DNA of 64,000 bases from Dehalococcoidia bacterium (lineage in GTDB: Bacteria; Chloroflexota; Dehalococcoidia; Plut-88900): NCBI GenBank assembly GCA_965207225.1, contig CBDBLV010000005.1, forward strand, positions 704,001 to 768,000, given 5' to 3'. Both the position numbers and the translations under genes were made by a program. Positions 32,085 through 35,551 of the stretch are shown here, in pieces. Position 1 is the first letter of the stretch. The number at the start of each line of letters is the position of its first letter. Under the pieces are notes generated by a model that was given only the letters and a program-made list of their open reading frames with translations, ran no database searches and was not told the origin of the DNA.

Positions 32085-33254
32085 TTACTGCCTCGGCAGC
32101 CCCAGCCCCCGGGTCGCTATGATGTTCCGCTGGATCTCCGACGTCCCGCTCTGGATAGTGTCGGAGATGCTCTTCAGGTAGTTGTTCTCTATCCAGCCGT
32201 GGGAAGGAGCATTGGCCGACGCCGGCGTAAGCTGGCCGTGCAACCCCAGGATCTGCATGCTCGCCTGCATGATCCGTTGCTCTATCTCCGTCCCGAACGC
32301 CTTGCCCATAGAGGCTTCCTTGTTCGGCACCTCTCCCTTGGACTGTATGTAGGCTATCTGGTAGGAAAGCATGTAGGACAGCTCGACGTTGATCGCCATC
32401 TCCGCTAGCTTGTTGCGCACCACGGGCAGGTCGATGAGGTTCTTGCCGTTGGCCTTCGTCTCACTGGCGAACCTGCGGGTCTCGTCCAGCGCCCGACGCG
32501 CCACCGCCGCATACTCAACTCCCGACCTTTCGAAGTCCAGCAGCGTCATCCCGGCATACCAGCCCCGGTTCACCTCCGCCACCACGTTCCCCTTCGGCAC
32601 CCTGACGTTGTCGAAGAACGTCTCGTTGAAGTGGTGTCCGCCCGTCATGTCCACAATCGGCCTCACCGAGACCCCCGGCGTCTTCATGTCCGCCAGGAAC
32701 ATGGTGATGCCCCTATGCTTGGGAGCTTCCGGGTCCGTGCGGGCCAGCAGGAGGATCCAGTCGGCCACGTGCGCCTGGGATGTCCATATCTTCTGCCCGT
32801 TTATCACCCACTCGTCGCCTTCCAGCACTGCCCGAGTCTGCAGTGACGCCAGGTCAGATCCCGACTCCGGCTCCGAGTAGCCCTGTGCCCACACCACTTC
32901 ACCCCGTGCGATTCCGCCGATGTGCTCCTTCTTCTGTTCCTCCGTTCCGTGCACCATGATGGCCGGCCCGATGTACCCGATGCCCTCACCGTCCCGGCCG
33001 GGGGCGTGAGCGTAGGACCACTCGTCGGTGAAGATCACCTGCTGCATCACCGAGGCGTCGGAGCCGCCATATTCTTTAGGCCAGGAGAGCGCCAGCCAAC
33101 CCTTATCGGCCAGCTTCTTACGCATGCCCATTTCCACGGCATGGGCCTCTTCGCTGCCGGGGACCAGGTCCGGGTCTTCCTTCCATTCCGCCGCAAGGAA
33201 GTCCTTGACCTCCTGCCTGAATGCCTGCTCTTCCGCGGTGAATTGAAATCGCAT
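32085..33254 (-). CDS. Acyl-CoA dehydrogenase (FadE-like)
   Basis: QGYSEPESGSDLASL, NGQKIWTS, FNETFFDNV, GTSEIQR. Confidence 0.93.
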   Translation of the reverse strand: MRFQFTAEEQAFRQEVKDFLAAEWKEDPDLVPGSEEAHAVEMGMRKKLADKGWLALSWPKEYGGSDASVMQQVIFTDEWSYAHAPGRDGEGIGYIGPAIMVHGTEEQKKEHIGGIARGEVVWAQGYSEPESGSDLASLQTRAVLEGDEWVINGQKIWTSQAHVADWILLLARTDPEAPKHRGITMFLADMKTPGVSVRPIVDMTGGHHFNETFFDNVRVPKGNVVAEVNRGWYAGMTLLDFERSGVEYAAVARRALDETRRFASETKANGKNLIDLPVVRNKLAEMAINVELSYMLSYQIAYIQSKGEVPNKEASMGKAFGTEIEQRIMQASMQILGLHGQLTPASANAPSHGWIENNYLKSISDTIQSGTSEIQRNIIATRGLGLPRQ

Positions 33255-33359
33255 CTATATCCTCCTGGCTTTGGGGAACAAGCCCAATCATAGCGGCATG
33301 GGACATACTCGACAAGCCTGGATGTAAGTAGCTTCTAATGCCCACCCCCCGACTCCCCT

Positions 33360-33386
33360 GTCATTCCGATACCCCGCGAGGAATCT
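33360..33386. repeat. GTCATT-type REP-like element
   Basis: GTCATTCCGA...GAGGAATCT imperfect palindrome. Confidence 0.45.
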
Positions 33387-33417
33387 GGGGTGGGGTCCAT
33401 CCCCCCAGTACCAAACT

Positions 33418-33464
33418 AGAGGCAGAGGTTGGCGCTTATGCGCCAACCTCTGCCTCTGTTTTTT
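33418..33464 (+). terminator. Perfect 18-bp inverted repeat followed by a T-tract
   Basis: AGAGGCAGAGGTTGGCGC-TTAT-GCGCCAACCTCTGCCTCT-GTTTTTT. Confidence 0.55.
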
Positions 33465-33518
33465 CTCCCCCTCTCCCTTAATGGCCCTAAGGGAGAGGGG
33501 GACCAAGGGGGTGAGGGT
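33465..33518. repeat. CCCTCTCCC...GGGAGAGGG-type REP-like palindrome
   Basis: TCCCCCTCTCCCTTA-atggccc-TAAGGGAGAGGGGGA followed by GGGGGTGAGGG. Confidence 0.6.
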
Positions 33519-33566
33519 TCCCTTGGAGGGGCCAGGGGGATATCCCCCCAAATGTCACACTACCCC

Positions 33567-33595
33567 TTGACATACAAACATTTGAGCTTTATATT
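33567..33595 (+). promoter_or_regulatory. Near-consensus sigma70 promoter with no downstream CDS
   Basis: TTGACA-N17-TATATT. Confidence 0.7.
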
Positions 33596-33710
33596 TGTTC
33601 TAAGTCTAGACCCGACACCAACCTTAAGGAGGAATCGAAAACTCAGGGGAACAACCCCGGCGCCCGGAGGACTCAACGCCCTAGCCCATCCCAATGCCTC
33701 CCCTCTCCCC

Positions 33711-33742
33711 GTAGGGGGCGACCGGCCAATCGCCCCCCTTAC
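33711..33742. repeat. GTAG-type REP-like palindrome
   Basis: GTAGGGGGCGA-ccggccaa-TCGCCCCCCTTAC. Confidence 0.6.
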
Positions 33743-33856
33743 TAGGAGAGCAGGCTGCGGCACAAGCGACAGTCGCCATCTCCTCCACCCCAATCCCGAT
33801 CCATCACATTCCCCTGTCCCCCAGGCGATGGAAAGACGCCCTGGATAGAAGCCACA

Positions 33857-34102
33857 GCGGACCGGCCATTCCCCCGCCGAGAGATCCTCTCGGTGGCTGG
33901 TTAGCAGCGAGCTTACGCTATATCAAGCTAGGGGTGGGACGGACTGGCTATCCCCGCCCGGGACTGGCTCCCGGAGGTTGGCCCGTAGGCGAGCTTACGC
34001 CATATCAAGCAAGGGGAAAGGCGGGCCGGCTCTACCCCGCCGGGACCGGTTCCCGGGGGTCGGCCTGCCGGCGAGCTTGAGCCATATCAAGCGAGGGGTT
34101 TG
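33857..34102 (+). repeat. Three tandem ~82-bp units with conserved secondary structure (candidate ncRNA)
   Basis: GCGAGCTT-x-GC-Y-ATATCAAGC-N-AGGGG at 33907, 33989 and 34071; 33907-33988 vs 33989-34070 match at 63/82 (hand count); compensatory changes in stems. Confidence 0.85.
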
Positions 34103-34567
34103 CTGGACCACCCAGACCCGAGGGTGCGCGCCATGTAAAGTAACTCCCGGGGGCTACCCGCCGATCACTGGCCCCCACTGCGCCCTTAGGCGCCTGGGAG
34201 CGGGTCAAGGCTCGGATGTCTGCCCGGACAGCCCGTGCTCCCCATCAAGCATAAGGGTGCGGCCGGCTGCAAGTTCCTCCGCCTGCGTGGTGGAGCGGAC
34301 CCTCCATGGCCCCCGACAGCCGGAACACCGCAGAAGAGTGGAGGCCAACGGCTCGCCAGGTGCGTCTTCCATCGCCGCCCCAAAACCCCACCAGACAGAA
34401 CCCAAACCCGAAACCTCACAACCGAATAAAGCCTCGATGCGTCACAACCTACCAAAAGAGTTTAGCCACTCGCACGAATCGCCGACGGGGAGTATCATTC
34501 GCGTTGTACGGGACTCGCTTCTCGTGCATGTGGCCCGCTCTAGCGTGGGAAGGCGTGTGAAACAGAT

Positions 34568-35551
34568 ATGAGCGCCGTCATTATCGATGGCCGCCGGATC
34601 GCCGATAATGTCCGGCTGGGCGTTAAATATGGCGTTCAGGAGCTGAAATCCAAGACGGGGGTCGTGCCGGGCCTCGCTGTGGTCCTTGTTTCCGACGACC
34701 CCGCCTCCAGCAGGTACGTTGCTGCCAAGGAGAGGGCCGCCGAGGAGTCCGGCATCTACTCCCAGACTTTCAAACTCCCCGCCAGCACCTCCGAACCCGA
34801 CCTCCTGGACTTCATCGAACGCCTCAACCACGACGACCGGTTCCACGGCATCCTCATCCAGTTCCCCGTCCCGCACGGCATCGACATGCTCAACGTCATC
34901 AACGCCGTTGACCCCATGAAAGACATCGAGGGCCTTCACCCCCTGGATGTGGGCTGGCTCCTGGCCGGAGAGCCCAGATTCGTGCCCTGCACCCCCGCAG
35001 GCATCCATCGAATGCTGGTCTCCATTGGCCACCACCCGGACGGAAAGCACGTAGTGGTGGTCGGCGGTAGCCTCATCGTCGGCCGACCCCTCGCCGCCCT
35101 TCTTCTCCAGGAAAAGCCCTGGGCCAACGCTACCGTTACCATCTGCCATCTCGGCACCACGGACGTCCCCAGCATCACCCGCATGGCCGACATCCTCGTG
35201 GTCGCTACTGGCAACCCCCAGGGCATAACCGGGGACATGGTCAAGAAGGGCGCAGTTGTAGTGGACGTCGGGATACACGCCATCCCGGACCCGACCAGAA
35301 AGAAAGGCTACCGCATCGTCGGCGACGTGGACTACGACTCCGTGAAGGAGAAGGCCCTTGCCATAACTCCCGTGCCGGGAGGTGTGGGAGTAATGACCGT
35401 CGCTATGCTGATGGTCAACACCCTGAAGGCGGCCAGGCTTTCAGCCGAGCCCGTGCTGCCTCCCTTCAGGATCGAGGACTACATGCACATCCGCCCCAGG
35501 TACGACACCGCCCACACCTACCTGACCTACCGGGACCCTACCAGCCGATAG
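34568..35551 (+). CDS. folD: Methylenetetrahydrofolate dehydrogenase/cyclohydrolase (divergent)
   Basis: IIDG, PGLAVVLV, YxxxK (YVAAK), PCTPAG, NATVTICH, GDVD, TPVPGGVG. Confidence 0.93.
   Translation: MSAVIIDGRRIADNVRLGVKYGVQELKSKTGVVPGLAVVLVSDDPASSRYVAAKERAAEESGIYSQTFKLPASTSEPDLLDFIERLNHDDRFHGILIQFPVPHGIDMLNVINAVDPMKDIEGLHPLDVGWLLAGEPRFVPCTPAGIHRMLVSIGHHPDGKHVVVVGGSLIVGRPLAALLLQEKPWANATVTICHLGTTDVPSITRMADILVVATGNPQGITGDMVKKGAVVVDVGIHAIPDPTRKKGYRIVGDVDYDSVKEKALAITPVPGGVGVMTVAMLMVNTLKAARLSAEPVLPPFRIEDYMHIRPRYDTAHTYLTYRDPTSR

Follow-up and report, generated by a model that had tools for sequence, protein, structure and literature searches.

The intergenic region upstream of folD

The window is a 64,000-nt stretch of a Dehalococcoidia genome (G000), and the feature under study lies in an intergenic gap of about 1.3 kb between a divergent 389-codon open reading frame (32085-33254, minus strand) and folD (34568-35551, plus strand), which encodes methylene-tetrahydrofolate dehydrogenase/cyclohydrolase (Pfam PF02882 and PF00763). 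A minus-strand promoter-like site at 33287-33315 (TTGTCG, 17 nt, TATGAT; 9/12) faces the divergent frame. Every genome of the genus also encodes a second FolD paralogue, 56-59% identical to the FolD of the window (C5:1413629-1414510 in G000).

Two dispersed repeats lie on the plus strand of this gap. R0 (33359-33400) is a short palindromic repeat of the TCATTCC..GGAATCC type with many copies in the genome; its motif also flanks other elements of the kind described here, and at this locus it forms the left edge of a block that is missing from the empty folD sites of other genomes. R0-type sequences, TCATTCC(C)G..(C)GGAATCC(A)TCCC, were also seen to gather in element-bearing intergenic regions, for example at C2:275619, C3:162253 and C5:104905 of G000. 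The dispersed repeat R1 (33403-33525) has two hairpins and gives more than 100 BLAST matches in the genome, and homology to the window locus continues through it in at least 13 copies of the element. Its first hairpin and T-run resemble an intrinsic terminator (33417-33458; 19 pairs, then TTTTTT) that faces the element promoter from upstream. This is the only plus-strand terminator-like site in the window, and the same scan of the window found none between the element promoter and folD. Elsewhere the repeat often sits directly upstream of element promoters, and it also sits directly after some element tails.

The sequence-only reading had noted an orphan promoter upstream of the units. Such a promoter is present at 33567-33595, of sigma-70 type and on the plus strand, with the sequence TTGACA-17-TATATT and 11 of 12 consensus matches (shuffled sequences gave 0.3 sites), and transcription would start from it near 33602. 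The predicted RNA begins with a 5' domain (33602-33823) that is conserved in 45 nhmmer matches in the genome. It opens with AAGGAGG (33626-33632), invariant and paired by RNAalifold with a CU-rich strand further downstream; the 5'-domain pairs in the RNAalifold alignment are 58-62 with 336-340 and 125-129 with 307-311. The 5' strand of a closing helix (GGCGAUGGAAAGACGCCCUGG...AGCC; 33824-33853) follows, with 25 RNAalifold pairs to 34350-34376 that are pairable in all 15 full elements.

Within this helix lie three plus-strand units, at 33857-33938, 33939-34020 and 34021-34102, which score 88.6, 91.8 and 89.8 bits, respectively, with a covariance model of the unit. In unit 1 the outer stem P1 pairs 33857-33867 with 33895-33905, and it is accompanied by the hairpin P2 (CCGAGA/UCUCGG), a GCG..CGC hairpin and the sequence AUAUCAAGC-N-AGGGG. 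Unit 3 is missing from two-unit copies, including the orthologous folD-upstream copies of G008 and G005. Conserved insert-domain helices occupy 34103-34235 on the 3' side of the units and include a covarying hairpin (GCGCC/GGCGC, AUGCC/GGCAU or GCGCAA/UUGCG) with changes on both sides at alignment pairs 725-739, 726-738 and 729-736. A degenerate fourth unit end had been proposed near this point. It is indeed present, as ATCAAGC..AAGGG at 34244-34257 followed by a P1-like strand, and belongs to a degenerate unit-like module (34236-34333, plus strand) in which AUCAAGC..AAGGG precedes a P1-like helix (GCGGCCGGCUGC/CAGCCGG..CCGC) around a hairpin. Alignment columns 807-817 pair with 865-879 in this module, and its inner hairpin, 821-824 with 845-848, covaries.

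The 3' strand of the closing helix (GGCU..CCAGGUGCGUCUUCCAUCGCC; 34350-34376), defined by RNAalifold and by comparison between subfamilies, leads into a C/A-rich, G-poor tail (34377-34429) that is predicted to be unpaired, ends in CACAACCGAAUA and is matched 32 times in the genome by nhmmer. Next comes a post-tail module some 40 nt long (34430-34467), common to many copies, which forms the right end of the inserted block and stops where homology to empty sites resumes. Immediately beyond it lies the native folD promoter (34468-34498, plus strand; CTCGCA-18-TATCAT, which scores under the cut-off of our consensus promoter scan), found in the same place in the six genomes whose folD site has no element. 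Like all the features from R0 onward, folD is on the plus strand and is thus co-oriented with the element.

The 82-nt unit and the RNA that encloses it

Tandem Repeats Finder placed 2.4 copies of an 82-nt period at 33907-34099, with 80% matches, in agreement with the tandem units of about 82 nt described earlier, and alignment of the units from 33857, 33939 and 34021 reproduced the stems of that description. Both proposed covarying helices, the outer stem and the 6-bp hairpin, were supported on 60 distinct units of the genus. P1 (11 bp) was paired in 93.2% of cells, with changes on both sides in 6 of its 11 pairs, and P2 (6 bp) in 98.6%, with one covarying pair (A-U in 39 units and G-C in 20). 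Stem registers that were slid along the alignment gave only 29-44% paired cells. The stem covariation score was 0.241 against 0.193 in shuffles and was reached by none of 500, a result that overstates significance because the counted units are paralogues and orthologues and not independent events.

Strand could be read from the same pairs. G-U or U-G pairs make up 152 of the 660 P1 cells (summed from the per-pair table of the 60 units), and on the other strand each of these would be an A-C mismatch. Since these pairs fit the plus strand only, the RNA is read from the plus strand, as had been claimed. P1 pairing within each unit gave 19 mismatches, compared with 28 for the register in which the 3' strand of one unit pairs with the 5' strand of the next; this mildly favors the intra-unit register, and alternative conformers may also form. 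Folding energies were ordinary relative to shuffled sequences both for single units (z = -1.07, 0.03 and -0.77) and for the whole array (z = -1.47).

A protein-coding origin was considered and rejected. The array carries a 240-codon open frame that is not conserved: of 15 copies, nine have stops in all three frames. Nine translated stop-to-stop frames matched nothing credible in Pfam or PHROGs, and an origin from a terminase gene accordingly found no support in this subfamily. The units are tandem duplicates of one folded, non-coding RNA module.

The most conserved part of the unit is not its stems but its single-stranded 3' half, GCGAGCUUACGCYAUAUCAAGCNAGGGG, which hardly varies even between species that share only 83-86% identity in FolD. 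Neither the GCUU/AAGC hairpin first proposed for this region nor its GCG/CGC alternative shows any variation. Of 59 units, 52 have a canonical pair flanking GCG..CGC (A-U in 30 and G-C in 22), and the other 7 have U-C there; this split tracks unit type and may reflect a single event. The candidate pseudoknot has a similar character, with a CCCC/GGGG core that is invariant in the units. A compensatory swap had been claimed next to this core, but the pair in question is canonical in only 29 of 58 units, and in 9 of 35 in fixed columns, and therefore the swap does not generalize.

The array had also been taken for a stand-alone multimeric RNA. Comparison of copies gave a different picture, in which a long-range helix encloses the units, and they form part of the insert domain of a much larger RNA, about 830 nt long (about 33602-34429). 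RNAalifold analysis of 15 full copies from six genomes, all of the unit-bearing subfamily (subfamily I), gave 136 pairs, of which 13 have changed on both sides; these counts, like those for the units, rest on related copies. The 25-bp closing helix (33824-33853 with 34350-34376) encloses the units, and its inner part shows compensating differences between subfamilies (AGACGC/GCGUCU in place of GGUCC/GGACC). Thus, of the structured RNA originally suggested, the covarying stems, the plus strand and the promoter behind them stand; the self-contained array does not, and the riboswitch and the HDV-like fold are unsupported.

Distribution, mobility and gene context of the element

The segment 33560-34430 recurs within the same genome, with one copy 88% identical over 885 nt and four further copies that contain units, and it recurs in all eight other genomes of the genus. 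It was absent from the genomes examined of three other genera of the family. Profile searches with nhmmer gave 45 matches to the 5' part and 32 to the 3' part in this genome, which pair into 31 elements spanning 369-821 nt; this number is a lower bound, as joining 5' and 3' parts in this way overlooked at least one further copy. All of these elements share a common plan. Each has a consensus promoter of one of three sequence types, always with TTGAC in the -35 box, then AAGGAGGAAC close to the start and a 5' domain some 200 nt long, followed by the strand GGCGAUGGA... with its complement ...UCCAUCGCC much further downstream, and a C/A-rich tail that ends in CACAAC(U/C)GAA(U/C)A. The insert between the complementary strands measures 250-450 nt and falls into about seven unrelated subfamilies, and promoter types and inserts combine as a mosaic across copies. 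Unit motifs were confined to subfamily I, represented by five copies in this genome. One further element (C4:403834-404566) shares the 3' half of the insert and has no units, which indicates that the units are a module within a mosaic insert.

A covariance model of the unit (model R1, distinct from the repeat of that name) was built from the 35-unit alignment A2. It found 91 units in eight of the nine genomes of the genus (G004 has no units), grouped in every case as arrays of two or three, and none in 145 genomes of the class from 109 other genera. The more distant species (G001, G002, G003 and G006) have only two-unit arrays, and so two units are probably the older state. Additionally, an exact-pattern scan of one genome per species (185,579 species) returned 26 stretches, 22 of them in the 'MAG: Dehalococcoidia bacterium' records of the genus. 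The remaining four were single matches that score 22-27 bits with the unit model, and three matches in JGI metagenome contigs score 21-22.5 bits; since about four chance matches are expected for the 19-base pattern, we take both sets as chance. Among public sequencing runs that contain the stretch, the DNA runs are sponge and marine metagenomes. The element family is specific to one genus of sponge-associated Dehalococcoidia, with about 30 copies per genome.

Orthologous loci differ in whether they carry the element. FolD orthologues are encoded in all nine genomes, and a unit-bearing element precedes folD in G000 (three units), G008 (two) and G005 (two). The element is absent from this site in G007, G001, G002, G003, G004 and G006, where the intergenic gap is about 130-200 nt. 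The inserted block, consisting of R0, R1, the promoter, the RNA and the post-tail module, runs from about 33324/33359 to 34467 and stops exactly at the native folD promoter, which the empty sites also have. Similarly, ribF is preceded by an element in eight of the nine genomes, ending just before a retained native promoter. Because the native promoters of folD and ribF are kept, the leader is not needed for expression of either gene. The insert at ribF bears units only in G000, indicating that inserts are exchanged at one locus or that the site has been hit repeatedly. Genes of the same family (ribF, the uvrA family and Glu/Gln-tRNA ligase; loci L127-L135, L068, L086 and L025) were also seen to bear different insert subfamilies between species. 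Such differences suggest that gene conversion acts between copies, or that the same promoter has received insertions more than once.

Inspection by eye of the folD junctions showed no target-site duplication and no terminal inverted repeat. Genes of the IS110 type (PF01548) and the TnpB type (PF07282) had no match in this genome, which at 92% completeness leaves their absence unproven. The genome contains four reverse-transcriptase (RVT_1) genes (C2:158087-158773, C5:1548409-1549095, C5:1553608-1554405 and C5:1671488-1672288), which lie in open frames of 586-652 codons; two of the four have identical scores.

Neighboring genes were called with a home-made caller based on codon usage. Among elements with a called neighbor, 28 of 30 are co-oriented with the downstream gene, whose start lies 42-552 nt past the tail with one exception at 2620 nt, and the upstream gene is divergent in 20 of 31 cases. 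The 28 genes that follow elements in this genome include uvrA, rpsO, katG, def, lgt, recA, gyrB, a Glu/Gln-tRNA ligase, rpoB, folD, speH, leuS, ribF, moaA, peptidases, amidohydrolases and a transporter. The unit-bearing elements precede folD, speH, ribF, an S58 peptidase gene and an MFS transporter gene, and at least 14 Pfam families lie behind 26 unit-bearing copies elsewhere in the genus. Genes as unrelated as these argue against a gene-specific switch.

Transcription past the tail was considered from terminator-like and promoter-like sites. A lenient script marked 11 of 30 tail-to-gene gaps as terminator-like, about five of which are strong hairpins of the R1-repeat type. Most copies with short gaps have no such hairpin after the tail. 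The five unit-bearing copies of this genome belong to the majority of copies, which lack a terminator ahead of a co-oriented gene at a distance of 42-181 nt. Since a strong hairpin of this type follows about five of the 31 elements, some copies may make a free-standing RNA. Among the 31 elements, nine are followed by a sigma-70-like promoter site no more than 130 nt past the tail (0.4 in shuffles), and five of these sites lie at +41 or +42.

Two sponge metatranscriptome runs from two studies contain contigs with insert-domain copies of relatives, about 89% identical. One of the runs has a 515-nt contig (depth 24) that spans 33818-34330 and shows 54 differences, as well as a 429-nt contig in which 33894-34141 is replaced by 174 different letters. 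Neither run had coverage on the flank at folD, from which nothing follows, since the copies in these runs belong to relatives with other flanks. These contigs are a weak hint of expression, as they represent relatives' copies and may reflect DNA carry-over, and their ends probably mark assembly breaks at shared repeats and not the ends of an RNA.

Explanations for the element and comparison with known classes

The reading that we consider probable is that the units are a duplicated structural or recognition module in a mobile cassette made of a promoter and a structured leader RNA. Each unit has an 11-bp stem whose internal loop is C-rich, together with a 6-bp hairpin, a shorter hairpin of GCG/CGC and the nearly invariant AUAUCAAGC-N-AGGGG. 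The cassette consists of a strong sigma-70-type promoter, often with a terminator-like repeat upstream of it, an RNA of 0.5-0.8 kb and the post-tail module of about 40 nt. In the RNA a long helix closes off a variable insert, with a 5' domain before it and a C/A-rich tail after it. The cassette lies directly upstream of the host gene's own promoter and in the orientation of the gene. At folD, transcription from 33567-33595 would run through the RNA and into the gene, with no terminator between, to give a second transcript with a long leader. We infer that the element is transcribed with read-through downstream, and that the units serve as repeated recognition or architectural modules, so that going from two units to three would add one such site. 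The genome encodes RNase III and the closing helix looks like a substrate for it; speculatively, cleavage there may free the insert domain.

An alternative that we find possible but doubtful is a family of free-standing large non-coding RNA genes in the manner of OLE, ROOL or GOLLD, each making a stable RNA of 0.5-0.8 kb that is possibly cleaved out at the closing helix. The position upstream of genes would then be a tolerated insertion, and the units would be architectural parts. The promoter carried by every copy, the strong terminator-like hairpins after about five of 31 copies, the native promoters retained downstream and the presence of RNase III all suit this explanation, as do metatranscriptome contigs that cover about 33818-34330, roughly the helix-enclosed domain. 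Most copies, however, including the five unit-bearing ones of this genome, lack a terminator before a co-oriented gene that lies at 42-181 nt, and the contig ends are probably assembly breaks at shared repeats. The covariation data fit a free RNA and a leader equally. An improbable explanation is that the element is selfish, non-autonomous mobile DNA whose RNA features matter little to the cell, with units that are functionless duplications from replication slippage. It would account for presence and absence at orthologous loci, for the mosaic of promoter types and inserts, for dozens of copies in one genus only and for the variation between two and three units. Yet compensatory and G-U changes specific to one strand keep the stems paired, a sign of selection acting on the RNA; species with FolD proteins only 83-86% identical share a nearly invariant 3' half of the unit; and a transposase, terminal inverted repeat or target duplication was not found.

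The explanation first offered for the array, tandem self-cleaving ribozymes or aptamers with an H-type pseudoknot that give 82-nt products or switch cooperatively, now appears highly improbable. It draws on the compact module with its conserved core GCGAGCUUACGCYAUAUCAAGCNAGGGG, on the possible CCCC/GGGG pseudoknot and on the tandem arrangement, and with no match to a known family a new class could be imagined. Against this, the downstream genes have no common theme, only 29 of 58 units have a canonical pair where the pseudoknot would be extended, a larger domain closed by a helix encloses the array, arrays never exceed three units, and no HDV-like or other ribozyme model appeared at E up to 10. 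A bolder reading, unlikely as we see it, would make the element a new modular class of RNA: a constant scaffold of 5' domain, RNase III-type closing helix and C/A-rich tail, delivered beside host promoters by a promoter-homing mechanism, that displays exchangeable structured inserts. Subfamily I would then carry a multivalent array, two or three copies of a new pseudoknotted 82-nt motif that binds a cellular factor or ligand, and would place expression of many housekeeping genes under one signal in sponge symbionts.

The promoter-and-leader reading which we prefer would have consequences beyond this locus. A mobile promoter with a long structured leader before rpoB, gyrB, recA and folD could rewire expression genome-wide, and the element would add a large RNA architecture, supported by covariation and with no Rfam counterpart, from an uncultured sponge-associated lineage. 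The unit-bearing subfamily I, its variation between two and three units and the exchange of inserts at orthologous loci are new here. This unit polymorphism and the single-locus exchange provide natural variants for probing the role of the insert domain.

Known RNA classes were compared with the element. Rfam gave nothing at gathering score in the whole window, consistent with the view that the family was not a recognized one. A cmscan search of 33000-35000 at E up to 10 listed only weak miRNA-type noise on the upstream hairpins, with neither an HDV-like family nor Chloroflexi-1, and the likeness to HDV-type ribozymes therefore found no support. The proposed riboswitch fared no better: at least 14 Pfam families lie downstream, with no single pathway or transporter class among them, and the arrangement does not resemble an expression platform, as about 250 nt of conserved helices follow the units within the closing helix and no terminator precedes folD. 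A sponge for CsrA-type proteins is likewise unlikely, as the 92%-complete genome has no match to CsrA (PF02599) and the unit loops have no conserved GGA. ARAGORN found no tRNA or tmRNA. Several other candidates were rejected. A type III toxin-antitoxin system (ToxI-like) does not agree with downstream genes that are housekeeping or metabolic, none of them an endoribonuclease toxin; a CRISPR array does not agree with conservation of the whole 82-nt unit between copies and no unique spacers; and a guide or bridge RNA of IS200/IS605 or IS110 elements does not agree with a 92%-complete genome in which no TnpB/IscB or IS110-type recombinase was found.

Pneumococcal BOX elements are modular, MITE-like dispersed repeats composed of boxA, a variable number of boxB modules and boxC. 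Like BOX and other MITE-like repeats, the present element has conserved ends, an internal tandem module of variable number and many intergenic copies, lacks a protein gene and can fold. In contrast to BOX, it is much larger, carries its own consensus promoter, is strongly biased in orientation toward the downstream gene and has an internal unit of 82 nt with covarying helices, and no terminal inverted repeats were seen. OLE, ROOL, GOLLD and HEARO (the IscB omega-RNA) are large orphan bacterial non-coding RNAs, all represented in Rfam, and HEARO is multi-copy. The element resembles them in its length of several hundred nucleotides, its intricate fold, its support from covariation and a function that for such RNAs is unclear or only recently found. 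It differs from them in having no Rfam match, about 30 copies per genome with different inserts, a position beside promoters and no IscB/TnpB-type gene found.

The closest published parallel found is that of putative mobile promoters ('Promoter reuse in prokaryotes', PMC3575422), in which upstream regions that carry a promoter and are highly similar to one another recur before unrelated genes of one genome. The present element shares this reuse; it differs in adding a structured RNA of 0.5-0.8 kb, whose scaffold is conserved and whose inserts can be exchanged, and in being inserted upstream of a retained native promoter with no replacement of it. A search of the full-text literature for a published description of the element itself found none, although the broad terms used make this weak evidence that it is unpublished.

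In rRNA processing stalks, a long helix of 5' and 3' sequences encloses a structured RNA within a longer transcript and is cut by RNase III. The closing helix resembles such a stalk, and the parallel goes no further than resemblance, with RNase III cleavage of the element a matter of speculation. An origin as an rRNA leader was rejected, as the element found 2 kb upstream of the 16S gene belongs to subfamily II and is an ordinary copy before a gene for a 488-aa protein. The single 16S gene (C4:510741-512337) and the single 23S gene (C5:49658-52796) of G000 lie on different contigs and are thus unlinked.
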